From positions 96,001 to 160,000 of IMG/VR virus record IMGVR_UViG_3300045988_179014: a DNA stretch of 64,000 bases. One strand, written 5' to 3'. Under the pieces are notes generated by a model. That model saw nothing but the letters and a program-made list of their open reading frames with translations. It was not told the DNA's origin and did not search any database. Below, one piece after another: positions 719-38,314 of this stretch. Numbering within the stretch: the first letter of the stretch is position 1; every line of letters starts with the position of its first letter. This stretch comes from a virus. A program made the position numbers and the translations under genes.

Positions 719-726
719 ATAATTGG

Positions 727-1746: not shown

Positions 1747-1780
1747 AATAATAAATATGATTGAAAATTATATACATGCG

Positions 1781-1853: not shown

Positions 1854-1882
1854 TTAATGTCTCTCATCAAGAGAGACAATTG

Positions 1883-1953: not shown

Positions 1954-1982
1954 AGGAGAGTATTATTGATTACTTTGTATTA

Positions 1983-2045
1983 GGCCCAGTGGTGCTGTTG
2001 TTGTGGGCTGGTATTTTTTTGAGGTTACCACTGGGCCAACAACAT
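1983..2045. other. structured element (ggcccagtgg ... ccactgggcc with nested gttgttgt/acaacaac) between tRNA-Gln and tRNA-Val
   Basis: 10-bp perfect inverted repeat enclosing a second complementary pair and a T7 run; no ORF. Confidence 0.35.
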
Positions 2046-2099
2046 GGTTGGTATAACATAGGTTTTTTCTTATGAAATCACTATACCATAACTACCATG

Positions 2100-2176
2100 T
2101 GGTGGACACAGAGATAATCGAAATCCCGACCTCCTGGGTGTAAACCAGGCGCTCTAACCAACTGAGCTATGCGTCC
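2100..2176 (-). tRNA. tRNA-Val, anticodon UAC, CCA encoded
   Basis: ggacgcatagctcagttggttagagc, anticodon stem cctgg/ccagg with loop uuUACac, T-arm GGGATTTCGATTATCTC, 3' ACCA. Confidence 0.85.
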
Positions 2177-2200
2177 ATTGTGAAACTAAGCAACATTGTG

Positions 2201-2273
2201 TGCTCTGAACGGGATTTGAACCCGTGTTGCTGCCTTGAGAGAGCGGCGTCCTAGGCCACTAGACGACCAGAGC
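2201..2273 (-). tRNA. tRNA-Glu, anticodon CUC
   Basis: Resembles bacterial tRNA-Glu (tcgtctagtggcctaggac ... GGGTTCAAATCCCG). Anticodon loop cuCUCaa; one mismatch in the anticodon stem. Confidence 0.75.
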
Positions 2274-2294
2274 ATAAAATGTTGGTTTTTATTT

Positions 2295-2368
2295 TGGAAC
2301 GGGTAAGGATTCGAACCTTACATATACCGGTAAAAGGCCGGCCGATTTGCCATTAATCTACCATTCCA
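2295..2368 (-). tRNA. tRNA, probable Lys (UUU); noncanonical anticodon loop ccUUUua
   Basis: Acceptor ggaatgg/ccgttcc, anticodon stem gccgg/ccggt, T-arm TAAGGTTCGAATCCTTA. Loop position 33 is C; assignment is by eye. Confidence 0.55.
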
Positions 2369-2547
2369 TGGGCAATTTCTTACCCATTTTCTCATCCCCA
2401 TCCAAGACTCTAACTTGGATGCCCTTCCGGTGCATTATCTTTATGCTAATGGGGCAACCATAGGTTCATTCCATATTGTAGGACAAACTATTCGAATTCA
2501 TCTATCCTGACAAAAATGAATTGTTCCCGTAGGTTGGATTATATCCG

Positions 2548-2620
2548 CTCCTCCACCTGGACTCGAACCAGGAACCGTTCGGTTAACAGCCGAATGCTCT
2601 GCCAATTGAGCTACAGAGGA
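2548..2620 (-). tRNA. tRNA-Asn, anticodon GUU (copy 1)
   Basis: tcctctgtagctcaattggcagagc, anticodon stem ttcgg/ccgaa with loop cuGUUaa, T-arm CCTGGTTCGAGTCCAGG. Confidence 0.85.
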
Positions 2621-2661
2621 ATATAGTATTACATTACAATAATACTTCAACATTTAGTTGG

Positions 2662-2736
2662 TACGCCCTGTGGGACTCGAACCCACGACCTACGGATTAA
2701 AAGTCCGCAGCTCTAAACCAACTGAGCTAAGGGCGC
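2662..2736 (-). tRNA. tRNA-Lys, anticodon UUU
   Basis: gcgcccttagctcagttggtttagagc, anticodon stem gcgga/tccgt with loop cuUUUaa, T-arm GTGGGTTCGAGTCCCAC. Confidence 0.85.
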
Positions 2737-2808
2737 ATGATAACTTCCCAATTTTTCCTTTGGATACTCGAAAACGCTCCATAATGGAAAAATTATCTCT
2801 GGGATGCG

Positions 2809-2891
2809 TGGATAGGGAGGGATTCGAACCCCCAGCGTTTCTTATGTCACGGTTTTACAGACCGCTTACTTCACCATTTGTATACCTATCC
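2809..2891 (-). tRNA. tRNA-Tyr, anticodon GUA, long variable arm
   Basis: Acceptor ggatagg/cctatcc, anticodon stem gcggt/accgt with loop cuGUAaa, about 15-nt variable arm, T-arm GGGGGTTCGAATCCCTC. Confidence 0.8.
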
Positions 2892-2926
2892 AGGTAATGT
2901 TTGTTTATATTCAATTGTTTTCTCAG

Positions 2927-3013
2927 CGGAGACGACAGGATTCGAACCTGCGGAGGGTGTAACCCCTCGACAGTTTAGCAAACTGTTGCTTTAGGCCTCT
3001 CAGCCACATCTCC
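2927..3013 (-). tRNA. tRNA-Ser, anticodon GCU, long variable arm
   Basis: ggagatgtggctgagaggc, anticodon stem acagt/actgt with loop uuGCUaa, 19-nt variable arm cgaggggttacaccctccg, T-arm CAGGTTCGAATCCTG. Confidence 0.8.
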
Positions 3014-3046
3014 AAGTATAACATATGCATGCTATTGATGCAAAAG

Positions 3047-3117
3047 AGGTGCCTATGGGATTCGAACCCATGTACACGGTTTTGCAGACCGCTGCCTCGC
3101 CACTCAGCCAAGGCACC
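3047..3117 (-). tRNA. tRNA-Cys, anticodon GCA
   Basis: Acceptor ggtgcct/aggcacc, anticodon stem gcggt/accgt with loop cuGCAaa, T-arm ATGGGTTCGAATCCCAT. Confidence 0.85.
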
Positions 3118-3118
3118 G

Positions 3119-3194
3119 CACTCCGGGTGAGAGTCGAACTCACATGTGTCCATTAACCTTTCTACTGGTTCGTAGCCAGAGGGTATACCGGAGT
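3119..3194 (-). tRNA. tRNA-Arg-like, anticodon loop cuACGaa; fold atypical
   Basis: Acceptor actccgg/ccggagt and T-arm GTGAGTTCGACTCTCAC are clear. The Arg-ACG anticodon loop matches the bacterial CTACGAA loop. As in 889-964, the anticodon arm follows the acceptor after about 8 nt, and a 21-nt D-loop-like segment precedes the T-arm. The gene abuts tRNA-Cys. Confidence 0.5.
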
Positions 3195-3260
3195 AATACA
3201 ATCCAAATATTAGGATGATTCATAGATTCTACATTTGTTGGTAACAGTAGAATCTATTTT

Positions 3261-3336
3261 GGGGTGACTGACCGGATTCGAACCGGCGAAATCCTGAGTC
3301 ACAGTCAGGCGTGTTAACCTCTCCACCACAGTCACC
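3261..3336 (-). tRNA. tRNA-His, anticodon GUG
   Basis: Acceptor ggtgact/agtcacc, anticodon stem cctga/tcagg with loop cuGUGac, T-arm GCCGGTTCGAATCCGGT, discriminator C. Confidence 0.85.
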
Positions 3337-3342
3337 ATTCTG

Positions 3343-3415
<73 letters not shown>

Positions 3416-6400: not shown

Positions 6401-8464
6401 TCTCAGACAAGGAATCATTCCACAGCAAGTTTGCATCTTCACGAAACTGTTCTCTTCTGAATCGAAACTTGTGCACCCGGCGACCTTGCGCCACATAAGA
6501 ATAATCAGAGCTGAGTTCTTTATCTGTCACAAAACCCAATGATTTATACATGCTACCATTGCTGACATCATGAGCAGAGAAAGTGACGATTTGGTTGATT
6601 CCTTCAATTACGCACCATTTTCTGACGTATTCAAGCATCTTCCCCAATCCGCCCATCACAATACAAGACGTGGCATATCGGTCCAACACCAAACTCTGAT
6701 TCCTGCGACTCCAAACGGAAACCGCCACTAAACCATCCTGTTCAGTTTTCAACCCCAAATACAATGAGCCAGTGGTAGTTCCCTGAATATGATAAACATT
6801 CAAAAAATCAGATACATCAGTATATTGCAAAACTACAACTTTAGTTTTTCTCGCAGCTATCCTTTTGCTCTCATTCAGTCCCAGTTTGTGTTGTATCATA
6901 GATTTGATGATAGAAGAACGATAACACCAATCATCCTCCCAAACCTGCAACAATTGAATGCCTTTTCTTTACACAATCGCCATTTCATCGAATGATAGTT
7001 TTTGTCTTTACCATTGGTGTCAGAATGCCAATGCAAACCATTGTATTCAATAGCAAAATTCTTTGATGGTATATAAACATCCAGTTCATACGGTGGAATA
7101 ACAGCACGAGTATTGCTAACAACAGAATCCTCATCACCCAACAATTGTTTCACAAACTCTTGAAGTTCTTTCTCAGCTCTGGACGTGAATGAACCAGCCA
7201 CACAATCAGGACATTGACTATTGTAAAAATTACGTGCATTGACTCTTGCACACCACACATGGCCTTTACTGCATTTCCACCAGATTTTGTGATTGGAACC
7301 AGCAGTTACTTCCTCAGGGGTCAAGGAATTGAGTTGGTTGTCCCATTCCTGCGCTAAATGAGGATTAATAGTCGCCAAATCATTGAAACCAGGAACAACA
7401 ACACGATTATTACAAACAGGACACAACTGCATTGATGAGTGAACAGCTTTTTTAATAGATTGTGTCCATTGGTGACCAAGTGAACATTTCCAGTGAACTA
7501 TTTCCCGTGAATTGGGATACACAGCATAGGGATTCAATGGCTGATTAAGTTCCATATCCCAAAAACTCATCAATTCAGGACAACAAACACCCAAGCTCTT
7601 CTCTCTTGGTGCTATCGTGGATTTTTGTACAACACAATATGGGCATTTGGTTCTTTTATTGACACGTTGTTTAACAGTAGCCACCCATAAATGCCCCTCA
7701 GAACATTTCCAATGAACACGAATTTGCTGTGACGGTTTAATCATGGATGGATTGATGTCAGTATTGAGAGCATAATCCCATTCATTCAACAGCTCTGGAT
7801 ACAAAGTCGCAAAATCATTCACACCCACCACTAATTTATGATTACTGCATACCGGACATTTAGTATTTCGTTTAGTACGTTGCGAAACCGGTGCCATCCA
7901 TGTGTGTCCATTCTTGCACCACCAGTAAACCTTGACGCTGGAATTAGCAGTCACATCATTAGGCGATAAGGAATGATTCTGTTCATAATCCCACTCAGAT
8001 GCAATCACTGGATGAGTAATGTTCAAAGTATTGACATTTTGTTCTGGAAGCTTACCTTGACATATTGGGCATGAGCCGCTTTTAATCCGGTGTTTCACTC
8101 CCATGACATATTCATGACCTGATGAACAAATCCAATGGAAACGTTTTGAGTTGGTTCTAGCAACTTGTCCAAAAGGGATTCCATTCATGTTCTCATCCCA
8201 TTCTGACAACAAATGAGGGTATCGAACATCCAATCTTTCTGATGGTGGTCCCAATCTTGCGCACAATGGACAACTACTGCCATTGACTCGGTTACGGACA
8301 GAAGCCATCCACTTGTGTTGACAATGATGACAAACCCAACCCACTTTTTCAATCGTCCCAGCTGAATAATCGGATGGAGTGTGCTTGTTGATAGTCGTGT
8401 CCCATTCCATCAACAACTGAGGAGCCACATCCGTGAGTGAACGTTTGGGTTGAGGTTTACGCAT
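6324..8464 (-). pseudogene. frameshifted paralog of the modular endonuclease family (zinc-ribbon repeats + DUF559-like + conserved C-terminal domain)
   Basis: ORFs 6896..8464 and 6324..6953 lie in different frames and overlap. Together they reproduce the full architecture of 21891..23792 (..YELDVYIPS..AIEYNGLHWH.. then ..QLLQVWEDDW..VWDSGKTRW). The frame break is at the A/T run near 6960-6968. Confidence 0.6.
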
Positions 8465-8466: not shown

Positions 8467-11439
8467 CTAACTCAAACGATTGGGTGGAGTGGTTTTGGCC
8501 GCAGCTGCACGAAAAATGTTCTCCAAAACATTAGCATCCTCCACTGTGGAACCAGTCATGGAACGCATATTGGCTGTCTTGTTGGTGTATGCATCAATAA
8601 TGTTTTCATCCACAGTACCTTCCAAATAGGGAAAATAGGCATTGGCATTTTGACCGTCTCGATGTGCCCGACCCAATGCTTGCTCAGTATCCAAATTGTT
8701 CTGTCGGATATCATGAATTATGCTGACACGTGGGTTACTGCTTGCTTTGTTTCCATCTGGTAATGTTTCTCCAGCATGTAAAGAAATACCAGCAACCACT
8801 GTACACAAAACAACATCTGCTTGCCCCGTCTGAAACTTGATACGTTCTGTTTCTCTCATGGAAACATTACGTCCACTGATTTCCGTTACTCGGAGTTTAC
8901 GCGCTTCCAAAAGTTCTTTATATCGGTCTATTGTTTCCATGAATTCACATGAAATGTATACTTGGTTCCCTGAATCCACAAGGTCTGCAATCATGTCAGC
9001 CATGGAATCAACTTTTAACAATGAGGATTTTTGTCTATATCGTAAGGTTTCTACCAGTGCGCCTTTGGGGTCTCGTTTTGCTGGGGTGAGTCTCAACCAG
9101 TTACGGAAACGTGTCCAAGCTTCCTCGTAAATGGGCCGTTGTTGATTGGTTAGTGCGATTGGGAAAGGAATGGTCAACTGTTCTGGCCATCCTGCTATGT
9201 CTTTGGGTGAACGCATAATGAAAGGAGCATCTGGTTTCAGTAATCCGCGACCTATACGTTGAGCGTCTTTTCGTTGGATTTCTTTTGCGTGTTTGATAGC
9301 TATTTCATATTTTCTGCGTTCCACGGGGTCTTTGGAATTCTTGCTGAAACTGGGAACAGAAGCCCACGAATATCCTGTTTTACCTTTGGTCACAGCGAAA
9401 TTATGTTTTTCCAAGAACGGTCCCCAAGTTGCTGGTGTTACCGTTTTTGATGCTGGCATATTTGTCAACAATGGAGCAATGATTCCAGCCATACTAGCAA
9501 AATTCAGTGGGGATGCTCCAGGTGTGGCAGTTGAATAGACCACAAAAGGAGAAACGTCTTTCTGGTAGGGTTTTTCCAATTGAGCAATGTTCACCGCAGC
9601 AACAGACATGGTGGAGCTGGGATAGTTTTTCAAATAATGAGCTTCATCAAAAATAATGAAGTCCCATTGTATTATGGGGGTTCCTTTCTGTGATGTTTGT
9701 CTGTTCTTGGTTCGTTGTTTCTTAGCGGTTTTGGCTGTTTCAGGAGTTTCCAGCAGTTTGTTCAATTGTTGATAGTTGATGACCATTGGACGCATGAGTG
9801 CTGTGGAGACAGGGTAATTGTGAAGTGTTTGTCTCCATTGTGGAATAACACTTTTAGGGCACACTATCAACAGTTTGGCTTTGTGTTTGACCCCGAATCC
9901 GCGCTGTTTTGCCAATGCAGTAATCCCTGAAAGTGTTGACAGTGTATTGTGAGTGGGAATATGCTCTCGCCCGGCCAGATACAAATGATTAGGACTGTCA
10001 ACACTAATGCAATAATAGGGCTCAGTTTTCTCAATTTCCTGCACTGAAACAATGTATCTGAACTGGTATTGTGCATTGGCAGCGAAATTGTTCAAATATT
10101 CATTCAGCAATGAGGCTTTGTCTTCAATACGGAAAACTTGATGAGTGGGACAATAGTGCAAAGATTTTTTTGTGGTGTTTTGATTCCGTGTGATGTTTGG
10201 TTTTGTACAATCCATGACTTGCCAGCCAAAACTACTAATCAGTGTTTTCACGTCAGCTTGCAGAGGGTCTGGTAAATCAAATTGGACTCCATAAGAATCC
10301 ACAGAACCAGCCACATCCATGATTCCTTGTAACAGTTCCAGTCGTTGTTCCCAATGTGATGTGAGATAACTTACAGGAATTGTTTTAGATGGTGCAGAAT
10401 CATACAGTTCATTCAATTCTTGATTCAGTTTTTCAAAACCATAATCATTCAATATGTTCATGCTTGCCACAGAATCCATTGAACCCAACCATGCACCCAA
10501 TATGTATGGATTGATTGGTAGTTCCTGGTGTGTACCTTCCACCATGGATGCGTTGTAAATACAGTGATTGGGTGTTCCAGTTGTAGCGTAGAGAGAATCC
10601 ACAATTTCTCTAGTGGTTTTGACAGAATCTTGATGCTGCTTGTCATGTGGTGCAGTTGCTCGGTCCAATGCTTCTAGAACTTCTTGTGGATGGTATAGAT
10701 GATGTTGGTTTTGCAGATTCAGAGGATTCACTGTTTCCAGCAGTTTTTGAATAAACACTAGGTTTTCACATTCGCTGGAAAGGGAATTGTAGTCTATTGC
10801 ATTGTGTTGATGTTGTGCATCCAACAAGTAGTTTTGTAATGCTTCGTGGTCTGAATGATTCAGTGGTGGGAATCGGTTGTTTATTTTAGGGTGATTTCGT
10901 TCAGCCAAATTACTGGTTAGCCAACGATGGTCTTCGTCAGCATCCAATGTGCTTCCATCCGAGAAAGTTATACAGTAGAATTTGTCGGCTTTTGATTCAT
11001 ATTTGGCTGTTACCATAGTGGGTAGACCATCAGAACTCAGCACGTATTGCCCCACTGCGATGTCTTTCATGGGAACTAAACCTTGTGGAGTTGGTAGTAG
11101 AGTGCTGGATGCAAGACCTTTACCCAAACCGGTTTTGTCCGCTTCCAGGAATCCTCTCCACCCTTGCTGGTAGGCTTTGATGATTTTCTTGGCCGCTTCC
11201 AGTTGATGTTCTCGTGGGGTGAAACTGACTGAACTTTTCTCAGGGGGCATTACCATTTTGTTCAGTTCATCTTCCTGCCAGCGAGCATAGGAAAAATCCT
11301 CACTACGGTATGGTCTCAACTCGGGGGGAAGAATAGTTCCACGGTATACATGAATTTTGTGGTTTTTCCAGTATTGTACATCTGGGTGTTTGAATCCCCA
11401 TGGAAGTTCCAATGTATGAATCATGTACCACTCACGCAA
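8467..11439 (-). CDS. SNF2/DEAD-like helicase interrupted by an intein
   Basis: N-terminal helicase P-loop ..EADKTGLGKG.. and C-terminal helicase motif VI (QALGRAHRDGQ). An intervening ~390 aa carries intein and LAGLIDADG motifs. Confidence 0.8.
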   Translation of the reverse strand: MREWYMIHTLELPWGFKHPDVQYWKNHKIHVYRGTILPPELRPYRSEDFSYARWQEDELNKMVMPPEKSSVSFTPREHQLEAAKKIIKAYQQGWRGFLEADKTGLGKGLASSTLLPTPQGLVPMKDIAVGQYVLSSDGLPTMVTAKYESKADKFYCITFSDGSTLDADEDHRWLTSNLAERNHPKINNRFPPLNHSDHEALQNYLLDAQHQHNAIDYNSLSSECENLVFIQKLLETVNPLNLQNQHHLYHPQEVLEALDRATAPHDKQHQDSVKTTREIVDSLYATTGTPNHCIYNASMVEGTHQELPINPYILGAWLGSMDSVASMNILNDYGFEKLNQELNELYDSAPSKTIPVSYLTSHWEQRLELLQGIMDVAGSVDSYGVQFDLPDPLQADVKTLISSFGWQVMDCTKPNITRNQNTTKKSLHYCPTHQVFRIEDKASLLNEYLNNFAANAQYQFRYIVSVQEIEKTEPYYCISVDSPNHLYLAGREHIPTHNTLSTLSGITALAKQRGFGVKHKAKLLIVCPKSVIPQWRQTLHNYPVSTALMRPMVINYQQLNKLLETPETAKTAKKQRTKNRQTSQKGTPIIQWDFIIFDEAHYLKNYPSSTMSVAAVNIAQLEKPYQKDVSPFVVYSTATPGASPLNFASMAGIIAPLLTNMPASKTVTPATWGPFLEKHNFAVTKGKTGYSWASVPSFSKNSKDPVERRKYEIAIKHAKEIQRKDAQRIGRGLLKPDAPFIMRSPKDIAGWPEQLTIPFPIALTNQQRPIYEEAWTRFRNWLRLTPAKRDPKGALVETLRYRQKSSLLKVDSMADMIADLVDSGNQVYISCEFMETIDRYKELLEARKLRVTEISGRNVSMRETERIKFQTGQADVVLCTVVAGISLHAGETLPDGNKASSNPRVSIIHDIRQNNLDTEQALGRAHRDGQNANAYFPYLEGTVDENIIDAYTNKTANMRSMTGSTVEDANVLENIFRAAAAKTTPPNRLS
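9946..11110 (-). mobile_element. intein with a LAGLIDADG homing endonuclease domain inside the SNF2 helicase (boundaries approximate)
   Basis: C-terminal intein block ..NHLYLAGREHIPTHN followed by Thr; LAGLIDADG-like motifs PYILGAWLGSMDS and LLQGIMDVAGSVDS; inserted next to the helicase GLGK P-loop. Confidence 0.6.
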
Positions 11440-11922: not shown

Positions 11923-12190
11923 AAACGGTCCATACTACCTTAAAAATATCTGCACCCATTTTACCGAAAGAGGAAAATCTCAATTTTACCCACCAAAATA
12001 ATGCTCAATCCACCAAAAATCAGAAACGAACCAATATGTATTATTTATAGTGTTAATAACATGAGATTGAAGAACCATAATAGGAACTAAATTGATAAAA
12101 ACTATTGAATCATGTAGTCAGTAGTTCTAGCATTCAATACTTATCTCGTATTGTTGGTATTTTGGTTGTGTAAATTAGTCGGGTTTCATA

Positions 12191-15591: not shown

Positions 15592-16707
15592 TCAGAGACG
15601 TCCGATTTTGAAGCCTGATTTTAGGAACCAGTTGAGGTCAGTGATAACTACACCACGTCTTGGATTAGCAGCATGAACCACTTTGCCATTGCCAACATAA
15701 ATTCCGATGTGCACACTGGTCCATAAAATGTCCCCAGGTTGAATCTCGTCTTTACTGACAGGAGTGGATGCCAAACCTTGAGCATGGGCGATACGTGGAA
15801 TGTTTTTACCATTGTGTGTATGATAAGCCCAATACACCAGTCCAGAACAGTCAAATGCATTAGGGCCAGAAGCACCCCAAACATATGGTTTCCCAACTTG
15901 GTCAATAATCATTTGAATAGTGGCATTGTCCACATTTGATGCTTTCAATGAACGCTTCTCATCATCTGTATTACGACCCCACTTATCACCTGAAGATGAA
16001 TTAGTGTTTGATGAATGAGCAGCAGTACGACCAGGGGTGTTGGCCACTTCATTAACAGTAGGCTCATTTGATGTCACAGCAGGTTCGGTTGTTGTGGTCT
16101 CTTTTGGACGCTCTTTGGTGCCAACCAGTACAACCTTGGGTATTGGCGCAGTTAAAACAGTCAACTTTTCTTCACTGGCGGTTTCAGTTCCCGCTTTAGC
16201 ACGACTTTGCGTTGAAATCACTGTTTTAAGGGCTTCACCTGCTGCTCCCTCATTTTCTACTTTGGTTTCACCCACATACAAATCATCACTGTTTTGGGTA
16301 ATTTCTGGTGCAGGTAATGTCACAGTAGATGATGTTCCAGCTATCTCATGTTTGTAGAGCACTAGATTTTCGTTGTTTTCAAGTGTTCGAGATGCAACGA
16401 GAGGATGGTCGCCTTCAATACGGTACTCATAGCTTTTGAGTCCTCGTGCTGACAATAATTCATCAATGGTGGCTTTGGCGTCAGTTACATCAATCACTTG
16501 TGTGTTTTCGTCAGAATTGACAACAATACGTGCTTTGAATGAGGAATCAGTACTCCCGGTCCCTTCAGCATTCAAAACAGCAGTATTGTCAATTGGGGAT
16601 GGAGGTACAGCCATAGCCACGGTAGGACTCAACGAAATCATGGCTGTAATAAGTCCTGTTGTTAGTTTTGTTGTTGTTCTTTTTTTCATCATAAGCTTTC
16701 GATTCAC
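15592..16707 (-). CDS. secreted peptidoglycan hydrolase: signal peptide + G5 domain + NlpC/P60 endopeptidase
   Basis: N-terminal signal peptide; G5-like middle region; C-terminal NlpC/P60 with catalytic CSGLVYWAY ... H ... H. Confidence 0.75.
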   Translation of the reverse strand: MNRKLMMKKRTTTKLTTGLITAMISLSPTVAMAVPPSPIDNTAVLNAEGTGSTDSSFKARIVVNSDENTQVIDVTDAKATIDELLSARGLKSYEYRIEGDHPLVASRTLENNENLVLYKHEIAGTSSTVTLPAPEITQNSDDLYVGETKVENEGAAGEALKTVISTQSRAKAGTETASEEKLTVLTAPIPKVVLVGTKERPKETTTTEPAVTSNEPTVNEVANTPGRTAAHSSNTNSSSGDKWGRNTDDEKRSLKASNVDNATIQMIIDQVGKPYVWGASGPNAFDCSGLVYWAYHTHNGKNIPRIAHAQGLASTPVSKDEIQPGDILWTSVHIGIYVGNGKVVHAANPRRGVVITDLNWFLKSGFKIGRL

Positions 16708-16929
16708 CAGTACATACCGGTTTTGTGTTATTTGATTTTCGGATTAACAGAAACTCATTAAAAGAGATAGGATAAATGCAAAAACCTACAATAATGAGCA
16801 CGAACGTTTGATAATATCAATACCCCAGCGGTTTGGTAATTATAATATTTCAGCAATATTGAGCATTTTGTTTAATGGGCAAAAGAATGGCCGCAGACAT
16901 TTAGGAATCTGCGGCCATTCTACAATGTA

Positions 16930-18036
16930 TCAAGATTGGGGTTTTGAAACAATAATAACAATGTTTTCTTCACTCTTGCCAGTTTGTCCCACACCAGGAA
17001 CCACATGTGTTACTTGAGGGGAAGTAACTGTTGAACTTACCACTTCCACAGTCTTGATATGACGGAATCCTGCAACCGCTAAATCGGTTTGTGCTTGTTC
17101 CGCAGTTTTGCCAATCACATCAGGAACAGTAATTTCCTTGGACTCGAATGCTTTGGAAACAACAACCTGCACATCGCTTCCACTTTCCACCTCACCCGCT
17201 TTAGGAGTCTGTCCAATGACAATACCTGAAGGTTTTTCTGACTCTTCCTCGCTGAAAATAACGTTCAACCCAAGCTGTTCTGCTTCAGCAGTGACAAGTT
17301 CCTTGCTCTTACCTTCCCAGTCAGGCAGTGTAACCTTACCGTTGGAAACATTCAAAGTGACGGATGTTCCATTAGCTACTTCAGTACCCGGTTCGATGCT
17401 TGCGCTGACGACATTTCCGGCTGGAAGCCCTTTACCGTCCACTTCATTCACAGCCTCAACAGAAACATTCATCTCATACAATTTTGCTTTTGCTTCTTCC
17501 AACGGTACATTCACTAAATTCGGAAACTCTGATTTGGCAGGACCATTGGAATATTTCATGGTCACTGTTTCTCCAATTTTTGTTTTTGTACTTGGTTCTA
17601 TATTCTGCTCAACCAATGTTCCACGTGGTTTTTCATCATTAACCACCCATGTTACCTGACATTCCAGTTTGGCCTCTTTGAAAGGAGCACAAGCATCATC
17701 GTTGGAAGCAACTTTACTGATTGCTTGTGGGACATGCGTATAATTAGCATTATCATAAGCAAGATAGATGAAATAACCACCAATAAGCAACAGAAAAGCA
17801 ACAATAGTGCTAACAACAATGACCCATTTACGTTTCTTGGATACGGCAGCTTGAGAGTTGGTGGTTGATTCTTCAGAATTATTGTCCTGATTCACTGAAC
17901 AATCTTCTTTAGTTTTATTCGAATCATCATCAGTATCAAAAACTGATGTTTCAGAATCATCAGCTATTGTTTCCGAATTCTTCTCAACAACTGTATCCTT
18001 ATTGTCTTCAGTTGTGTCATTAGTGTTATCATTCAT
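16930..18036 (-). CDS. membrane protein with three or four extracellular PASTA domains and no kinase domain
   Basis: Short acidic N-terminus; TM segment WVIVVSTIVAFLLLIGGYFIYLAY; repeated PASTA-like modules (..VPDVIGKTAEQAQTDLAVAGF.., ..LPDWEGKSKELVTAEAEQLGL..). Confidence 0.65.
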   Translation of the reverse strand: MNDNTNDTTEDNKDTVVEKNSETIADDSETSVFDTDDDSNKTKEDCSVNQDNNSEESTTNSQAAVSKKRKWVIVVSTIVAFLLLIGGYFIYLAYDNANYTHVPQAISKVASNDDACAPFKEAKLECQVTWVVNDEKPRGTLVEQNIEPSTKTKIGETVTMKYSNGPAKSEFPNLVNVPLEEAKAKLYEMNVSVEAVNEVDGKGLPAGNVVSASIEPGTEVANGTSVTLNVSNGKVTLPDWEGKSKELVTAEAEQLGLNVIFSEEESEKPSGIVIGQTPKAGEVESGSDVQVVVSKAFESKEITVPDVIGKTAEQAQTDLAVAGFRHIKTVEVVSSTVTSPQVTHVVPGVGQTGKSEENIVIIVSKPQS

Positions 18037-18100
18037 ATTTTACTTGACCTTCCTTGTGTTTTCGTTTGTCATTGTAACAAGTTGACACAATGGCCCTATT

Positions 18101-19666
18101 TCATGTGTTGTCTTTCTTCTTATCCCGTTCACGACGGACATTCCCGGCTTCCTCTTCATCCCAATAACAAACTGCCAGCAAGGGATTTGTAAGAATTTGG
18201 CTATTGTCTTCTGGATTCTCTGCAAACTTTAATCGTGCTGCATATGCTCGACGTTTGACGTATCGTGAAATACGTTGAGAACGTGAAGACACCTGCAAAG
18301 CTTTCTCGTCATAACCTTCCAGCAGAATGTCATCAACACTACGGGCTCGTGAAAGCGCCACATACCCCAAACCAGGAGTGAAACAATTAGAAAGGTCCAC
18401 TTTAATGGCATCGAATGTTTGTCCTTGGGATTTGTGAACCGTGATTGCATACCCCAGTTTCAGTGGGAATTGATTAATCTGTGCTTCCAATTCATCCACT
18501 TCCACTATCTTGTTCTCTGGCGAAGTGGTAATTGTTTTCTTGCGATAAGCCTCATACACTAAACGCGTAATTCCAACAATGTTTCCATTGTTCAACTGCA
18601 CCTGTACTGAATCGTCAGATATGGAAATAATTTTTCCCACACTACCATTCGCGGCTACCATTTGTTCCATGGCCGCATCATAGTAGTTAGCGGTAACAAT
18701 AACAGTGGCATCAATTTTCAATTCCAAGACTTCTGGAATATTGCGTGTTTTAATCATTTTGTCAACGGCGTCAGTATTGCCGAAAATCTTCTGAACATGA
18801 AACACTTTCAATGGGTTTTGGTTTGATGCCAGCTGTTCTTCATTGTATTTGTTCACATTTTTGTTGGTGGTGAACAGAGTAGTATACGTTTTGTTTGTAT
18901 CAGGTGTATTTGTTCGACAGTCTTCCAGAATATGGTAACTCTGCTCATCCATTTCACCACGTTCAATGGTGCGAAGTAAATGCAACAAGCGTTTATCCGC
19001 TGTACGTCGCACCTTGTCCATGTATGCATATTGGATGTTTCCGTTCTTCCAAGCATTTGAACAAATCGCTGGTTGGTAATTCGCAGTATTTGTTCTATTT
19101 CGTGGAGCAACTGGAGGAAGTTGAAGAAAATCCCCCAAAAGAACTACTTGAATACCACCAAAAGGTTCATCATTTTTACGAATTGTTTTACACACTCGGT
19201 CGATGTTGTCCAAGTAATAAGCCGGCAGCATTGAAATTTCATCAATAATTAATACATCCGTATATTTAATACGAGTTCTCGCGGCATAGCTGATACGGTC
19301 CTTTGTGGTGAATTCTTTGTCAAGAATACCCAACCCAGACCATGAATGAACAGTACGTCCATCAATCAATGCAGCTGCCAATCCTGTAGAAGCAGTAACA
19401 GCAACAGAAAAACGACCCTCAAATTTTGCATCCAACAGTTTGATGAATTGTTGGACAATGTGTGTTTTCCCAGAACCAGCTGGACCTGAGATGAACAAAT
19501 TCTCGCGTTGCAGTAATCGAGCCAATACCTCAACTTGACTGGAACACATACAATCATTCATAGCATCAGTTGGGGTTTCGTAGCCAATGAACGGGTCGGC
19601 CTCGAAAGCCTCCAATGTTTCCCGTCGTTTTTTCTGAGCACGTTCAACAGCTGACATCCGTGCCAT
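18101..19666 (-). CDS. PIF1/RecD-family helicase
   Basis: Walker A ISGPAGSGKTHIV; AAA_30/UvrD_C-like layout. Confidence 0.7.
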   Translation of the reverse strand: MARMSAVERAQKKRRETLEAFEADPFIGYETPTDAMNDCMCSSQVEVLARLLQRENLFISGPAGSGKTHIVQQFIKLLDAKFEGRFSVAVTASTGLAAALIDGRTVHSWSGLGILDKEFTTKDRISYAARTRIKYTDVLIIDEISMLPAYYLDNIDRVCKTIRKNDEPFGGIQVVLLGDFLQLPPVAPRNRTNTANYQPAICSNAWKNGNIQYAYMDKVRRTADKRLLHLLRTIERGEMDEQSYHILEDCRTNTPDTNKTYTTLFTTNKNVNKYNEEQLASNQNPLKVFHVQKIFGNTDAVDKMIKTRNIPEVLELKIDATVIVTANYYDAAMEQMVAANGSVGKIISISDDSVQVQLNNGNIVGITRLVYEAYRKKTITTSPENKIVEVDELEAQINQFPLKLGYAITVHKSQGQTFDAIKVDLSNCFTPGLGYVALSRARSVDDILLEGYDEKALQVSSRSQRISRYVKRRAYAARLKFAENPEDNSQILTNPLLAVCYWDEEEAGNVRRERDKKKDNT

Positions 19667-19673: not shown

Positions 19674-20630
19674 TCACTTCCTTACCTGTTTGGCAATCTG
19701 CACAAGCAGAAGTTCCATTGTAACAGAATCATCCGCCTGAGACCCACCCTTCAAATCAGTTTCAGCTTGTGCTATTAATTCTGTTAACTTTTGACAAATG
19801 CTTAATCCTAATTGTCGTGACATGTTCTGTGCCAATTTGAGTGCATAACTGTTGGAAACAGATAGGACAGCAGACAATTGTGCTCTATCAGTGATGCCGT
19901 GAAAGTGCTCCAAAGCAGCTATTCGCCACATCAATTGTATCTTATTGCGTAAAACAGATAACACCACCAAAGGATGACTGTGTAAAATGATTCTGCGATA
20001 AACACTTATTGTTTCAGGTACATCGCCTTGCATCAAAGGTTTCTCGATTTCCCAAGGTGGAATGGACCCTGGAGGTTGCGGCAGACGAATCATCAAATCT
20101 GCTACCGTAATCATGGATTGCTGTTTAGGAGTCAATGTTTCCAGTGACCGTAACAAAGAAAGCAAACTGTCATAATCTTCTGCAACATAATCTTCCAAGA
20201 AGCGTTTTTCACTACGTCCAAGAGATAGATTTGACAGCAATTTAGTGGTTACACTTGATTTGTCTTTGGATGATTCTTTGGCCAGTATGACACGGCCACC
20301 CAAATGATTGACGATTTGTTCCAATTTCTTTGTTGAGTTACGATTGGCCCCTGAAACCAGAACCAACCCATACCGTAATTTATGATTCAATTCATTCTTT
20401 GATGATGATTCCAAATCTTTGACCAATTTTTTGATTGTACTGATGTCATCCAATTCCATAACAGCTGTAGGCGGGTTTCCGAAAATGGTTTCTTGTCCCA
20501 CTTCGTCCAATGAATTCACTCGCTGAACATCAGTATCAGATTGCCATTGTTTCAAAATGCTCGCACGCTGAAAATCTCGGAAAGCAGACGATTTGTCCAA
20601 GATTAACGCCAATTTCATTCCGCACCTCAA
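19674..20630 (-). CDS. hypothetical; possible DNA polymerase III delta (HolA)-like clamp-loader subunit
   Basis: Length and C-terminal ..GGSQADDSVTMELLLVQIAK.. resemble HolA domain III. Weak. Confidence 0.35.
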   Translation of the reverse strand: MRCGMKLALILDKSSAFRDFQRASILKQWQSDTDVQRVNSLDEVGQETIFGNPPTAVMELDDISTIKKLVKDLESSSKNELNHKLRYGLVLVSGANRNSTKKLEQIVNHLGGRVILAKESSKDKSSVTTKLLSNLSLGRSEKRFLEDYVAEDYDSLLSLLRSLETLTPKQQSMITVADLMIRLPQPPGSIPPWEIEKPLMQGDVPETISVYRRIILHSHPLVVLSVLRNKIQLMWRIAALEHFHGITDRAQLSAVLSVSNSYALKLAQNMSRQLGLSICQKLTELIAQAETDLKGGSQADDSVTMELLLVQIAKQVRK

Positions 20631-21184
20631 AATCGAAAAACGATGGTACCATGGTCAACAACATCATACTTGGGAATAAAAATTTTATCCATGTTTCCGT
20701 CACAGAAAATACGACGCGAATCCAAACTGTGACTTGCATTGTCACCCATGACGAACAATTCCTCCCCAGTCAATGTGTGCTCATATCCTGTTTGTCCTTT
20801 AGCGCATTCGTAATTGTCTTGCTCCAGTTCATATACTGTTTCCCCATTTACCATGAATGCTTTCCCATCAAATGCGAGTGTGTCTCCAGGTATTGCTGTG
20901 ATGCGTTTTATCAAATTGGTGTCACGCTCCACATATGAATCCCACGAATTTGGTTTCTTGAATACAACAATTTGTCCACGGGAAACATAATCCGATTGCT
21001 TCAATACAATACTGTCCCCATGATGCAAAGTTGGTTCCATTGACCGTCCAGAGACGGCAAAAACAGAAATCCTAGCTATCATCAACACAACAAAAAACAA
21101 AACCGCAAGTATGGTTACTGCAACAACAAGACCTATACCAATTTTTATGATTCGTTTACCCAAATCTCTACTTGCCAAGTCCAT
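20627..21184 (-). CDS. lepB: signal peptidase I (S26 family)
   Basis: TM anchor; catalytic Ser box SGRSMEPTL; later Lys-box region. Confidence 0.75.
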   Translation of the reverse strand: MDLASRDLGKRIIKIGIGLVVAVTILAVLFFVVLMIARISVFAVSGRSMEPTLHHGDSIVLKQSDYVSRGQIVVFKKPNSWDSYVERDTNLIKRITAIPGDTLAFDGKAFMVNGETVYELEQDNYECAKGQTGYEHTLTGEELFVMGDNASHSLDSRRIFCDGNMDKIFIPKYDVVDHGTIVFRF

Positions 21185-21890: not shown

Positions 21891-23792
21891 TCATGAATCC
21901 AGCATCTTCACCCAACGAGTCTTACCCGAATCCCAAACTTTGCTCAAACCGTTCAATTCCACCAATTCGGATTCGGTCAAACCATCTTGCCACAATAATT
22001 CCGGGTCTTTCATGAAACGTTGTTTACGAAACACAAACTTGTGGTATCTACAATTCTTCCAAACATACTTGTAATCTGGTGGCAATTCTCTGTCCAGTGT
22101 GAATCCATTGGAAACATACACAGTACCATCACTGACTTCATGGTCTGAGAAAGAAACAATCCGATGAACACCTGATAATTGAACAACAGCATATTTCAGC
22201 AATTTACTGAAACCACCAGGAACAGACACGGAAGTGGCGAAACGTTCCAATACAGCAGTCTCATTTTGCAGAGAAAATGACATAACCGCCACCAACGAAT
22301 TGGTCTCATCCACTAAACCAAAAGACCTGGTAAAATCCTTGAAACCCTGAATATGGTACGAATTCAAAAATTCACGAACCACATTCTTGTCAGGAATCAC
22401 ACCAACCGTTTTACGCGCCATGACACGACTGACACTCAACCCTAATTTGTGTCGTATCATAGATTTGACGATAGAAGAACGATAACACCAATCATCCTCC
22501 CAAATCTGCAATAATTGGACCTGTTTGTCATGACACTGTTTCCACTTGTTGTAATGATACTGACGAGGATTGGGACGTCCAGCTTCACGCATCACATTTT
22601 CTTGATGCCAATACACGCCATTCACTTCAATGGCCAAATGCTTGGATGGTATATAAACATCCAGCTCATATGGCGCAATAAGTGAACGGTCATGTCGCAC
22701 CACGGATTCAGACCCCACTAAACCTTCCACGAACTTTGCAATCTCCAACTCGCTCACTGATGCATTGGACCTGCATTGTCGACAACCACTGTAGCGACGT
22801 GAATAAACTGCCGCTTTCCAAGAATGTCCTTTTTGGCAACGCCACCAGACTTTTCGAGATGATTGAACTGTAACCATTTCTGGTCCATTACCATTCAAAA
22901 CCTCATCCCACTCACATGCAAGGTCAGGAGAAACTGTTTTCAAATCATTGAATCCCACCAAAACCCTAGTGTTTGAATTTGAACAATAAGGACAACCTGT
23001 GGATTGACGATGAGCCACTGATGCTTCCCAAGAATGTCCTCGGAAACACTGCCACCAATATTTGTTAGCTGTTCCATAAAGAACTTCGGATGGCGTCACC
23101 AACCCATTCTTTGATGGATGCCATTCCTGTGTCAGCTGCGGATTGACAGTAGCCAAATCGTTGAACCCGAACCATACTTTCCGATTAGCGCAATACGGAC
23201 ACCCTTGTCGTCTTTGACTTCGTTTAATTATGGATGCTTCCCACTCATGGTTGTTCACACACTTCCACCACACCTTTTTGGAACTGGTGTACAAAACCTC
23301 ACATAGTGATTCAAGATTTTTCACATTCCATTCCGGAACCAACTCTGGATTACAACTGGCCAAATCGTTGAAACCAGATAGAACCTTCCTGTTGGCACAA
23401 TAAGGACAACCTTGATTCCGTGTTGTACGATACTTGACTTTGGCTTCCCAAATATGACCCAAAACACATCGCCATGTGAATACTTGTGAACTGGTAGCAA
23501 GAATAGAACTTGTATCAGGTGTGTTCACGTCCATGATTAATTCTGCTGCTATTTGTGGGAACTGTGACTTCAAATCATTGAACCCAGCAAGCACTTTCCG
23601 ATTCGCACAATAAGGGCAACCACTGTGTCGATTGGATTTGTTGTTGACAGATGATTCATAAGAATGCCCTAATGAACACAACCAATACGCTTTGATGGAG
23701 GAACCTTGTGGAAGATGGTCAGGATTCAAATGAGAATTACGTTTCCAGCCCCATTCACTCATAAGTAACGGAGAATCTGATACATTCCGCAT
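21891..23792 (-). CDS. modular nuclease, probable homing endonuclease: ~9 zinc-ribbon repeats (DUF4379-like) + DUF559/Vsr-like PD-(D/E)xK + conserved C-terminal domain
   Basis: Repeats of W.C..GH.W.A.V..R.....GCPYC.N..V..GFNDL; then YELDVYIPSKHLAIEVNGVYWH; then the QIWEDDW...HIQG...VWDSGKTRW domain shared with the two paralogs. Confidence 0.65.
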   Translation of the reverse strand: MRNVSDSPLLMSEWGWKRNSHLNPDHLPQGSSIKAYWLCSLGHSYESSVNNKSNRHSGCPYCANRKVLAGFNDLKSQFPQIAAELIMDVNTPDTSSILATSSQVFTWRCVLGHIWEAKVKYRTTRNQGCPYCANRKVLSGFNDLASCNPELVPEWNVKNLESLCEVLYTSSKKVWWKCVNNHEWEASIIKRSQRRQGCPYCANRKVWFGFNDLATVNPQLTQEWHPSKNGLVTPSEVLYGTANKYWWQCFRGHSWEASVAHRQSTGCPYCSNSNTRVLVGFNDLKTVSPDLACEWDEVLNGNGPEMVTVQSSRKVWWRCQKGHSWKAAVYSRRYSGCRQCRSNASVSELEIAKFVEGLVGSESVVRHDRSLIAPYELDVYIPSKHLAIEVNGVYWHQENVMREAGRPNPRQYHYNKWKQCHDKQVQLLQIWEDDWCYRSSIVKSMIRHKLGLSVSRVMARKTVGVIPDKNVVREFLNSYHIQGFKDFTRSFGLVDETNSLVAVMSFSLQNETAVLERFATSVSVPGGFSKLLKYAVVQLSGVHRIVSFSDHEVSDGTVYVSNGFTLDRELPPDYKYVWKNCRYHKFVFRKQRFMKDPELLWQDGLTESELVELNGLSKVWDSGKTRWVKMLDS

Positions 23793-35941: not shown

Positions 35942-38314
35942 TCAGGAGGATGTATACAGAACAATCTCCTTTTTGGTTCCCACTGGTAATTGCAATCCAG
36001 GGGTCAAAGACTGTTCCACAACCACCCCGGATGGATACCCTTCTGGTGCAGGTTTTGTTTCTTTACTGACATGCACCACAATACCCAATGATTCCATGGT
36101 ACTGACAGCTTCAGCCGGTTGCATTCCAACAACAGACGGGATAGTGAAAAAATCACGTTTCTCAACTGGTACAGGTTGCAATGAGCGGTCAGCATTATCG
36201 TAATCCAATGGCTGATTTGACTCACCTGAACCTGCCACAATTGCTCTTAAAACATCTGATGCGGCTTGTGATGCTGGGTTGATACTTTGACGCTGCCCAC
36301 GATACACCATTCCGTCTACACCTCTGGTTACTGTATCCATGTCGTAAATACCCATGTAGATGGAGTGTGTTTTGGATACTTGAGCCCATGCATAATTGTA
36401 ATTCTGGTTGGTTCCAGATTTACCCACAGCATCATATCCCTGAATTTGCGCTTTGGTTCCGAAAGCCCCCTCAACTTCACCAGGATATGTGTTCGCACGC
36501 ATTGCTTGAAGCACTGTTGATGCTGTGTGTGGACTCATGACTCGACGACAGGAGTCTTTGGCCGGGTCATAAGTATCCGGAATCGCTGGTGAGGTTCCAT
36601 CAGCGTATTCATAATTGGCAACAGGTGTGGCAGGGCAGAAAACACCCCCATTCGCAAATGTTGCATAAGCAGCTGCCATATTGATGGGACTGTTTTCAAC
36701 AGAACCCAAAACAAATGACAGGCTACGTTCAGTAACACCTTTCGGAACATTGAGATTCAAGTTTCTGCTCATGTCAAAAATCTTGTTCATCCCAATTTTG
36801 GTGGCTAGTGTCAAAAACCAAGTGTTGGAAGACCATGCAGTAGCTTGTTTGTAGTTGATGTTGCCAGCTTGATATGTACACCCATTCGAGTTGTGGAAAC
36901 CGCCTCGGGGATGGTCATAGCCAGAAGGGGAATATGGACATTGTGATGAGAACTGCATATCTGCTGGGTCCATACCTGATTCCAATGCTGCGGCTAATGC
37001 AACCATTTTGAAGGTGGAGCCAGTTGCCGCTGGATTAGCTGGCACATTGAGTGTTGTTTCTCCTTCACCAACACCATAATTACGATTCACCCCGATGCCT
37101 GATACTCCACCATTACCAGGATTTACAACTGCGACAGGGGCAACCACTCGATTGCCGTTACCAAAATCTTTTTCCAGCTGTTCATCAATTAACTGCATTT
37201 GTTGAGGATTCATATATGTTTTGATGTGCAAACCGCCTTTGGCCAGAATCGCATCTCGTTCATCTTGAGTTTCCCCCAGTTTTGGACTCTTGGACAAATA
37301 TTGGAAAACATAGTTGCAGTAGAATGGGTATTTGGATGACACACAATTCCCAGCAGAACGTTTTTTACGTACAAGAGTCAACTCCTCAGCTAATGCATTT
37401 GATGCTTCTTCTTGTGTGATGTAACCTTCTGCGACCATACGATTGAGGACAGTTTTTTGACGAGTTTTCCACTGGTTTTTACGGTCATCATTGTCCAAGT
37501 TGTATGCAGCCGGGTTTTGCACTGACCCCACCAGCACAGCAGATTCCGCCAAAGTCAAATCCTTGGCAGATTTCCCAAAAAAGTAATTGGAAGCTGATTC
37601 AATGGAGTAAATATTAGGTCCACCAAAAGCAACTGTATTGAAATAAGCCAACAGAATCTCATCTTTACTGTGAGTTTTTTCATACTCAATAGCAAGTTTC
37701 AGTTCTTTCAGTTTTCGTGTATATGTGCTTTCAACCGCCTCTTTTTTCTTCTCTTTACCCGCCATATTATAGAATTGCAGATTTTTCACCAATTGCTGAG
37801 TGATACCAGACCCACCCCCGGAACTCAACAATGCTCTAAAAGTTCCTTTGGGGTCGAATCCTTTGTGTTCATAGAACCTTTTGTCTTCAGTTGCCAAAAG
37901 ACCTTTCTTGGCATAATCACTGATTTCATCCAATGATTTCAGAGCAATACGGTCCTCTGACCAGACTTCAGCGAAAACGTCCCCATTTGTGTCATATAGT
38001 GTGTTTCGTTGGGCGATTTGAATGTCTCCCAGCTCGGATGGCATTTGTTTCCATACACTTACCATAGGGTCAGCAACCATAGCAGCACTACTCAGCATTG
38101 CAAGGGGCAACATGGACACCAAAAGACCTGCAACAACAGATATCCCAATAATACCGAAAATGGCTCCAACAGTTTTCTTAGCACTTCTTTTTTCAACAAC
38201 ATGCTCTTCCACAGAAGCTACGCCATCGAAAAGTTCATCAATACTTACTGTGGTAGCGTTTTTGTCATTCCACTGACCAAACATATAATTCCTCCAAGAA
38301 ACTGTGACCGCCAT
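35942..38314 (-). CDS. class A penicillin-binding protein (glycosyltransferase + transpeptidase) with a C-terminal PASTA domain
   Basis: TM anchor; GT51 motifs (RFYEHKGFD, QQLVKN); transpeptidase STFK; C-terminal PASTA. Confidence 0.85.
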   Translation of the reverse strand: MAVTVSWRNYMFGQWNDKNATTVSIDELFDGVASVEEHVVEKRSAKKTVGAIFGIIGISVVAGLLVSMLPLAMLSSAAMVADPMVSVWKQMPSELGDIQIAQRNTLYDTNGDVFAEVWSEDRIALKSLDEISDYAKKGLLATEDKRFYEHKGFDPKGTFRALLSSGGGSGITQQLVKNLQFYNMAGKEKKKEAVESTYTRKLKELKLAIEYEKTHSKDEILLAYFNTVAFGGPNIYSIESASNYFFGKSAKDLTLAESAVLVGSVQNPAAYNLDNDDRKNQWKTRQKTVLNRMVAEGYITQEEASNALAEELTLVRKKRSAGNCVSSKYPFYCNYVFQYLSKSPKLGETQDERDAILAKGGLHIKTYMNPQQMQLIDEQLEKDFGNGNRVVAPVAVVNPGNGGVSGIGVNRNYGVGEGETTLNVPANPAATGSTFKMVALAAALESGMDPADMQFSSQCPYSPSGYDHPRGGFHNSNGCTYQAGNINYKQATAWSSNTWFLTLATKIGMNKIFDMSRNLNLNVPKGVTERSLSFVLGSVENSPINMAAAYATFANGGVFCPATPVANYEYADGTSPAIPDTYDPAKDSCRRVMSPHTASTVLQAMRANTYPGEVEGAFGTKAQIQGYDAVGKSGTNQNYNYAWAQVSKTHSIYMGIYDMDTVTRGVDGMVYRGQRQSINPASQAASDVLRAIVAGSGESNQPLDYDNADRSLQPVPVEKRDFFTIPSVVGMQPAEAVSTMESLGIVVHVSKETKPAPEGYPSGVVVEQSLTPGLQLPVGTKKEIVLYTSS

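Follow-up and report, generated by a model that had tools for sequence, protein, structure and literature searches.

A stretch of 64,000 nucleotides from a virus (positions 96,001 to 160,000 of IMG/VR record IMGVR_UViG_3300045988_179014; hereafter the window) carries a gene for a 368-residue protein that joins a single transmembrane helix to four PASTA modules and holds neither a kinase nor a penicillin-binding protein (PBP) catalytic domain. Relatives of this PASTA protein form a large and conserved family, and its gene belongs to the vertically inherited core of a clade of phage-like elements of giant size (~340-730 kb). By analogy with the ectodomains of PASTA kinases, we tentatively favour the reading that the protein is anchored in the membrane, binds lipid II or nascent peptidoglycan and would act in trans on the wall and division control of a Gram-positive-type host.

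A family of kinase-less PASTA proteins

The Pfam PASTA profile (PF03793) matched the 368-residue product in four stretches with 124.2 bits against a gathering cut-off of 23.2 (E=1.9e-36). It was the only family above threshold in the Pfam scan of the protein, in which no kinase (Pkinase) or transpeptidase family and neither PF00905 nor PF00912 was found. An alignment of 37 family sequences served to build an AlphaFold2 model (mean predicted local distance difference test score, pLDDT, 78.6) in which residues 1-66 are disordered (pLDDT <50) and are followed by a single long helix (68-98) and by four alpha/beta modules with pLDDT of ~90, whose approximate boundaries are given in Table 1. Each module has ~65-70 residues with one helix packed on a small beta-sheet, and the four form a linear array. 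In the PDB, Foldseek ranked the ectodomains of two PASTA kinases highest (E from 1e-11 to 1e-13), those of PrkC/Stk1 from S. aureus (3py9, 3m9g) and of PknB from M. tuberculosis (2kui, 5e12), and then the PASTA units of PBP1 and PBP2x; the solved PASTA domains matched include 3ouv at a TM-score of 0.87 and 5nod at 0.76. A sequence-profile search of the PDB retrieved the same PASTA-ectodomain chains. An earlier sequence-only reading of this DNA had proposed three or four PASTA modules free of kinase and PBP catalytic domains. The nature of the repeats and the missing domains are thus confirmed, and of the two counts four stands and three falls, since the PF03793 domain count and the structure prediction, both suggested there as checks, give the same number. 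The modules are mutually 18-28% identical, which points to an old four-unit array rather than to a recent duplication.

The NCBIfam model for Stk1-family PASTA kinases (NF033483) aligned to residues 15-294 of the protein over model positions 273-563 of 563 only, with 152 bits against a cut-off of 450. Since the match is restricted to the C-terminal part of the model, the protein corresponds to the juxtamembrane, transmembrane and ectodomain portion of such kinases, with the catalytic domain absent. The tail of residues 1-66, which aligns to the juxtamembrane part of the model, holds 19 Asp/Glu against 4 Lys/Arg, as well as 19 Ser/Thr. The highest Kyte-Doolittle window (2.63) lies at residues 72-90, and from the positive-inside rule, with the KKRK patch placed before the helix, an N-in/C-out (type II) topology is predicted, by which the modules would face outwards. 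Two further profile matches were set aside because they reflect the composition of the low-complexity tail and transmembrane region, namely MapZ (NF047909; 28.5 bits against an equivalog cut-off of 700) and DUF4711 (21.8 bits against 27). No PHROGs family matched the protein.

The exact product was also found on the 337,400-bp contig k119_28504 of ENA ERZ27262748 and on four further contigs of 0.2-1 Mb, and the 19 sequences in its 90% cluster come from contigs of 343-347 kb. A word-indexed search returned 36 close relatives (45-96% identity, 227-644 residues), in which PASTA was the sole recognised repeat and of which none carried a kinase according to precomputed Pfam annotations; true PASTA kinases entered this search only in the next tier, at ~30% identity. 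When 1.84 billion cluster representatives (50% clusters) were searched with a profile, ~80 of the best 150 matches aligned end to end in a single stretch (197-676 residues), and no kinase domain was found in the ten longest distant relatives (552-676 residues). This search also returned giant proteins of 1,000-3,400 residues with up to 28 PASTA-like stretches (P0078-P0086 and others). One transmembrane helix and four modules are kept in all 36 full-length aligned members, a count that leaves aside the 227-residue fragment P0036. A family-pattern scan of GTDB with one genome per species (185,579 species) found no relative. Among the phages of INPHARED, 20 kb of the window had no nucleotide match, and at the protein level three weak matches only were obtained (<=32% identity), one of which is probably a host pknB within a 386-kb 'Staphylococcus phage' record; in the plasmid collection PLSDB, the matches were solely bona fide pknB kinases on large replicons. 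Judged from these sequence comparisons, the kinase-less state is a family trait, and neither an assembly truncation nor the property of an ordinary bacterial gene. The two findings that the sequence-only reading had named as fatal to it, repeats other than PASTA and homologues that are kinases truncated by assembly, were looked for, and what was found instead was a PASTA profile match and a set of kinase-less relatives.

Conservation within the family rises steeply along the protein, from a mean pairwise identity of 21% in the tail and 27% in the transmembrane helix to 45% in PASTA1, 54% in PASTA2, 64% in PASTA3 and 77% in PASTA4, where the minimum pairwise identity is still 50%. In a comparison with the 98%-identical IMG/VR copy, the ratio of nonsynonymous to synonymous substitution rates (dN/dS) of the PASTA gene was 0.15 overall, 0.07 for the ectodomain and 0.37 for the tail (from small counts), and 0.11-0.12 for the neighbouring PIF1 and HolA-like genes, which indicates that the PASTA gene is under purifying selection. 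Taken together, the identity gradient and the ectodomain and tail ratios suggest that selection acts on the outer, membrane-anchored array, most strongly on its distal unit, and that the inner part is free to vary. Accordingly, the roughly 60-residue acidic cytoplasmic stub of the sequence-only reading describes this protein well, with 66 residues here, but does not hold as a family feature: tails range from 33 to 338 residues, are mostly acidic but net positive in two members, and in one relative (P0019) contain a DUF6575 domain. Some relatives have N-terminal regions 200-360 residues long.

Gene block, envelope genes and the carrier element

The PASTA gene lies in a conserved block (Table 1) whose gene order, signal peptidase I, HolA-like, PIF1, PASTA and G5/NlpC-P60 hydrolase, was found at 8/8 loci from seven lineages. 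Leaving out the 98%-identical copy L005, identities between the relatives' loci and the window copies are 46-52% for the PASTA protein, 43-56% for the PIF1 helicase, 34-49% for the HolA-like protein and 36-43% for the NlpC/P60 hydrolase.

Table 1. Positions in the window of the PASTA gene, the parts of its product and associated features
Feature	Position	Strand	Remarks	Basis
PASTA membrane protein gene, complete	16930..18036	minus	368 residues + stop codon, ATG start	Open reading frame list
Shine-Dalgarno-like AAGGAAGG (putative function)	18048..18055	minus	11 nt 5' of the PASTA-gene ATG, within the 64-nt gap to the PIF1 gene	Direct sequence reading
Residues 1-66: predicted cytoplasmic tail	17839..18036	minus	Disordered, acidic, Ser/Thr/Asn-rich	AlphaFold2 pLDDT and composition
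Residues 67-98: KKRK basic patch and single transmembrane helix	17743..17838	minus	Hydrophobic core 72-90	AlphaFold2 helix 68-98
Residues 99-165: PASTA1	17542..17742	minus	Atypical, near-invariant Cys116/Cys126 pair	AlphaFold2 model and family alignment
Residues 166-232: PASTA2	17341..17541	minus	Aligns to S. aureus kinase PASTA repeats	AlphaFold2 model
Residues 233-298: PASTA3	17143..17340	minus	Holds the best Pfam stretch (235-295)	Pfam and AlphaFold2
Residues 299-368: PASTA4	16933..17142	minus	Membrane-distal, most conserved part of the protein	Family identity; most invariant alignment columns here
Intrinsic-terminator-like hairpin	16880..16921	minus	15-bp stem, 8-nt loop, then UUUUG; begins 9 nt past the PASTA-gene stop	Folding
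G5 + NlpC/P60 peptidoglycan endopeptidase, secreted	15592..16707	minus	Exact start uncertain; possible link to the PASTA protein	Pfam NLPC_P60 2.6e-20, G5 2.5e-10
PIF1-like helicase	18101-19666	minus	5' of the PASTA gene, same block	Pfam
HolA-like clamp-loader subunit	19674-20630	minus	Same block	Pfam
S26 signal peptidase I	20627-21184	minus	Same block	Pfam
Class A PBP: transglycosylase, transpeptidase, one C-terminal PASTA	35942..38314	minus	PASTA at residues 724-789	Pfam Transgly 3e-48, Transpeptidase 1.7e-23, PASTA 3.3e-8

The gap between the PIF1 and PASTA genes is short in the relatives as well (18 nt in locus L008, 53 nt in L001 and L010, 56 nt in L009). Downstream of the PASTA gene, a pattern-based terminator scan had missed the hairpin that folding revealed later, with a fold energy of -27.8 kcal/mol (z = -7.6; 0/200 shuffles equally stable). 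Strong hairpins of different sequence occupy the same position in L006, L008, L009 and L010, and L001 has a long inverted repeat there. The terminator-like hairpin and the short gap to PIF1 suggest that the PASTA gene closes a replication-gene transcription unit, and the hairpin together with the gap to the hydrolase gene (69-390 nt across loci) suggests that PASTA and hydrolase genes belong to separate units. A scan for promoter patterns gave a result at chance level. The stems of the hairpins are unrelated between lineages; the loop carries the 9-mer TCTGATATT in L001 (~11950-12010), L004 (~11060-11110) and L006 (~11095-11150), and the 9-mer is absent elsewhere in those three 21-kb loci. The loops of L009 and L010 have GATATT, and the window hairpin lacks TCTGATATT. 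In the interval between PASTA and hydrolase genes, this 9-mer may act as a conserved regulatory site. A holin/spanin-type lysis-cassette protein was ruled out by the length of 368 residues with a large folded ectodomain, the position in a replication unit, the hairpin before the hydrolase gene and the missing PHROGs match.

The hydrolase consists of a signal peptide with an AxA motif, a conserved module without Pfam match, G5, a low-complexity linker and NlpC/P60, and Cys287, His333 and His345 are invariant in its alignment. Near the conserved block of the 697-kb relative (L001 978-1778, minus strand), a 266-residue protein combines G5 with an SLT transglycosylase, a pairing that resembles the resuscitation-promoting factor RpfB, and an ADP-ribosyl exotoxin-like gene stands at the end of that locus.

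The class A PBP gene, of PonA2-like layout, lies ~18 kb upstream of the PASTA gene on the coding strand. Its homologues of the same architecture form at least 120 clusters (50-99% identity) among 5,406 matches, nearly all from metagenome assemblies with contigs up to 727,572 bp, and six of their contigs are equal in size to contigs carrying PASTA-only homologues. Among cellular class A PBPs, the best matches reach no more than 25-32% identity and are of mixed phylum, with Actinobacteria heading a list that also includes CPR/Patescibacteria, Gammaproteobacteria and Firmicutes. Host inference through the PBP therefore fails, its cellular relatives being too distant and too mixed, and the low identity to cellular PBPs together with the number of homologous clusters suggests that the PBP and PASTA genes are old residents of the clade rather than recent captures. 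The modules of the PASTA protein are 23-27% identical to the PASTA of the element's own PBP, which probably belongs to an envelope module of the element.

The contigs that carry the PASTA gene measure 337-347 kb, and contigs of relatives reach 697 kb; IMG/VR lists two relatives as viral, one of 189 kb and one of 309 kb. The contig of P0019 (697,643 bp; JGI Ga0308157_10000025) has the same size but a different start in the JGI and ENA assemblies, which suggests a circular genome. The readable part of the present element amounts to ~107 kb, the window and a further 43 kb of the IMG/VR copy, or about one third of a ~340-kb genome; along contig positions 1-106,802 of that copy, genes for replication, repair, tRNAs and secretion-like functions were encountered, but no virion gene was recognised. 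Every large open reading frame of the window is on the minus strand, and its genes include a 19-tRNA array, NrdE, RecG, a ClpB-like ATPase, DnaB, a clamp-like protein, single-stranded DNA-binding protein, RecA, MoxR/VWA proteins, a Bax1-I membrane protein, HNH and homing endonucleases and many open reading frames without family. The tRNA array (window 100-3415) reaches at least 35 genes on the 98%-identical IMG/VR contig (continuing at L011 11476-20010), contains a tRNA-Ile(tat) gene as well as duplicates of the Lys and Asn genes, and encloses a gene for a 527-residue TROVE/Ro60-like protein; dCMP deaminase, MazG-like and NERD proteins follow it on that contig. The alpha subunit of DNA polymerase III (DnaE) is encoded in two pieces, a PHP/N-terminal gene and a finger/HhH gene, which enclose a DnaX-like clamp-loader gene (L013 11223-16934).

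Further features of the element were observed in passing. Two RNA ligases, PHA02142/Rnl2-like and T4 Rnl1-like (45487-46512 and 47719-49302, minus strand), flank an HNH gene (47109-47651), and the three may form a tRNA-repair set accompanying the large tRNA array. DUF4379 treble-clef zinc-finger repeats, five to six per protein, occur at window positions 6896-8464 and 21891-23792 (minus strand) and at L012 16838-18592, and recur beside the conserved block in relatives. The SNF2 helicase of the window (8467-11439, minus strand) has a weak, sub-threshold Intein_splicing match, and in relatives intein domains interrupt the core genes NrdE and RecA (L004 501-4937; L008 18248-20665).

Scans with Pfam and PHROGs revealed no recognisable capsid, portal or terminase gene in the ~107 kb, in which not every open reading frame was scanned with both libraries. 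At ~2.3-14 kb of the IMG/VR contig, ~45-55 kb upstream, a T2SSE/VirB11-type ATPase (E=1.6e-26) and a 1035-residue membrane protein with a weak TrbL/VirB6 match (E=7e-7) are encoded together with a matchless protein of 1339 residues, and a Rad50/SbcC-like ATPase adjoins (L096 2350-3594, 7095-11114; L094 3289-6396). In the 309-kb relative the T2SSE-type ATPase carries a LAGLIDADG intein, and a homologue is also present in the jumbo Microcystis phage MaAM05. This stretch puts the phage nature of the element itself in question. Searches with large orphan proteins of the element gave no match, neither for two of them against phages by tblastn nor for three by sequence in the PDB. The phage-like character given to the carrier by the sequence-only reading thus gains from the IMG/VR relatives, the tRNAs, RNA ligases, homing endonucleases and inteins, the wealth of orphan genes and the lack of a GTDB relative, but not from any recognised virion gene. 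Giant phage is the likeliest label, and one we use with considerable confidence; since ~107 kb hold no recognised virion gene and secretion-like genes lie upstream, it is nevertheless a label that we infer. Megaphages of the animal gut named 'Houyi' have been described from the rumen with genomes of 648-716 kb (PMC11662467); a link to the present clade is possible.

Possible roles in the host cell wall

Our favoured reading, to which we give somewhat less than an even chance, is that the PASTA protein interferes with host wall control. Being the last gene of the signal peptidase-HolA-PIF1-PASTA unit, the PASTA gene would be expressed together with replication genes, and its product would insert in the host membrane with the four modules on the outer face and with no enzymatic or signalling output inside. 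The array, chiefly PASTA4, would then bind the ligands of cellular PASTA domains, such as lipid II, uncross-linked nascent peptidoglycan and divisome or hydrolase partners at sites of active wall synthesis. Because the protein has no kinase, it would fill those sites without signalling and thereby compete with the host PASTA kinase and PASTA-PBPs, uncoupling wall and division control, while the element's own envelope enzymes, the PASTA class A PBP, the secreted G5-NlpC/P60 endopeptidase and signal peptidase I, act.

An engineered protein provides the closest analogy, and with it an experimental precedent for the decoy role suggested in the sequence-only reading. Overexpression in M. smegmatis of the transmembrane helix and four PASTA units of PknB delayed regrowth and gave elongated cells like those of PknB depletion, mislocalised nascent peptidoglycan and increased beta-lactam sensitivity, and constructs without the transmembrane helix or with one to three units were nearly inert (PMC4632501). 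Moreover, both StkP and PknB have a distal PASTA of special function: that of StkP binds LytB, and that of PknB is indispensable and linked to the binding of lipid II (PMC10434722, PMC6428115). The conservation gradient of the present family agrees with this.

Several points weigh against an inhibitory role of the array. Cellular PASTA kinases match the protein at just ~27-32% identity in their ectodomains, with no sign that a particular host kinase is mimicked, and the phenotype of the PknB construct was obtained by strong overexpression of the cognate ectodomain (PMC4632501). With a peptidoglycan synthase and a hydrolase on the element, a constructive role as a scaffold is no less fitting than inhibition, and the long N-terminal regions and the one DUF6575 domain leave room for a cytoplasmic function in the family.

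A broader version of interference with host wall control, which we regard as possible but rather doubtful, is that the clade, a widespread one, carries a peptidoglycan-growth toolkit of its own, made up of the PASTA PBP, the G5-NlpC/P60 hydrolase, signal peptidase I and the PASTA anchor, in which the anchor would act as a natural dominant-negative on the checkpoint formed by host PASTA kinase and divisome, or hijack it. If true, the element would silence the wall-integrity signalling of its host, drive wall growth and block division during a long infection.

Alternatively, the PASTA protein could tether or regulate the element's own wall enzymes, with PASTA4 holding the G5-NlpC/P60 hydrolase, and possibly the PASTA PBP, at a set height or place in the wall, so that controlled wall remodelling or cell enlargement would result and not premature lysis. 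The model for this is StkP, whose PASTA4 binds LytB with a dissociation constant of 22 uM and controls where LytB localises (PMC10434722). The hydrolase gene stands directly 3' of the PASTA gene at every locus, PASTA4 is the most conserved module, and the conserved module of the hydrolase between signal peptide and G5 could serve docking; the PASTA PBP and signal peptidase I are encoded on the same element. On the other hand, the two genes are neighbours in a long stretch in which unrelated genes (HolA, PIF1, SpoU methylase, Mre11-like) are collinear as well, so that their adjacency may reflect general synteny rather than coupling, and the strong hairpin and the gap part the pair. We consider a tether rather unlikely.

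Less probable still is superinfection exclusion or surface masking, in which rival phages would be kept out of a cell already occupied, either because the array covers nascent wall or lipid II or because it blocks the membrane step of DNA entry. Many phage exclusion proteins are membrane-anchored extracytoplasmic binders, and the PASTA protein, which crosses the membrane once, bears an external binding array and has no catalytic domain, resembles them; its gene is probably expressed alongside early or middle replication genes. However, it shows no similarity to known exclusion proteins and had no PHROGs match at all, and genes of this kind are usually variable accessories, whereas the PASTA gene is part of a syntenic core and is conserved like the PIF1 helicase.

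The secretion-like genes of the IMG/VR copy and the lack of a recognised capsid, terminase or portal would agree with yet another role, on a giant non-viral element, where PASTA anchor and hydrolase would open the wall locally for a type IV secretion system or Tad-like machine. We judge this very improbable: the PASTA block and the secretion-like genes are far apart, the TrbL match is weak, and the T2SSE homologue of MaAM05 places such an ATPase in a jumbo phage. The gene content is also of jumbo-phage type (at least 35 tRNAs, Ro60-like, RNA ligases, homing endonucleases, NrdE, dCMP deaminase), and IMG/VR classes two relatives as viral. Finally, the layout of a kinase gene minus its kinase domain might suggest a functionless, decaying remnant of a captured PASTA-kinase gene, a reading effectively refuted, on the conservation data, by open reading frames intact in every relative of a large and old family, by dN/dS values close to those of the flanking helicase and HolA genes, and by the 77% identity of PASTA4 between lineages in which HolA shares no more than 33-49% identity with the window copy.

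In Firmicutes and Actinobacteria, PASTA kinases hold a central place in the regulation of wall synthesis, division, exit from dormancy and beta-lactam tolerance, and both the ligands of their arrays and the way in which binding controls the cell are still debated. A natural, strongly conserved and kinase-free array, apparently kept for its extracellular activity alone, would be a clean tool for the study of array function. The family is also a candidate inhibitor of wall-stress signalling, and inhibition of such signalling by recombinant PknB PASTA has already been proposed as a therapeutic principle (PMC4632501). In addition, the present genes hint at an unreported habit of giant phage-like elements, which would carry peptidoglycan synthases and accessories, not lysins alone, and thereby manage the growth of the host wall.

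Comparison with known PASTA proteins

The sequence-only reading held that PASTA domains normally occur on PBPs or kinases and knew of no described function for stand-alone phage PASTA proteins. In the open-access literature, we likewise found no described function for PASTA-only proteins and nothing on PASTA in connection with jumbo, huge or phage-encoded proteins; yet such proteins do exist, both in viral collections and on chromosomes. In BFVD, several entries from uncultured Caudovirales are named 'PASTA_pknB domain containing protein' and are free of kinase and PBP domains, like the present protein, to which a 760-residue entry aligns over 289 columns (E=2.4e-16); they differ in family and context, and most have one PASTA module. 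A chromosomal 'beta-lactam-binding protein with PASTA domain' (574 residues, 29% identical) is also kinase-less, but adjoins an ABC transporter and the trp operon.

With the kinases PknB, Stk1, StkP and PrkC (NF033483), the protein shares a disordered juxtamembrane segment, one transmembrane helix and a linear outer PASTA array, and with PknB and StkP also the number of four modules, the membrane-distal one being special in both. In contrast to these, it has no kinase domain, is only ~27-32% identical and does not lie in a chromosomal locus of the pknB-pstP-rodA-pbpA type. Since the kinase domain was tested for and is absent, the protein is not a member of the PASTA-kinase family. Nor is it a PBP, for it shares the PASTA fold with PBP2x, PBP2B, S. 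aureus PBP1 and M. tuberculosis PonA2 but lacks a transpeptidase or transglycosylase domain. Its architecture is identical to that of the engineered M. tuberculosis PknB construct of residues 331-627 (Turapov et al. 2015, PMC4632501), which likewise consists of a transmembrane helix and four PASTA modules without kinase. That construct is artificial and was overexpressed in a cognate host, whereas the element's protein is natural and divergent and has an acidic tail of 66 residues. Analogy with these systems suggests that the protein would work like a PASTA-kinase ectodomain and comes from the same stock. In conclusion, a kinase-less PASTA architecture is not in itself new; the new part is a large, conserved family of proteins with one transmembrane helix and four PASTA modules on giant elements that also encode a PBP, an endopeptidase and a signal peptidase.

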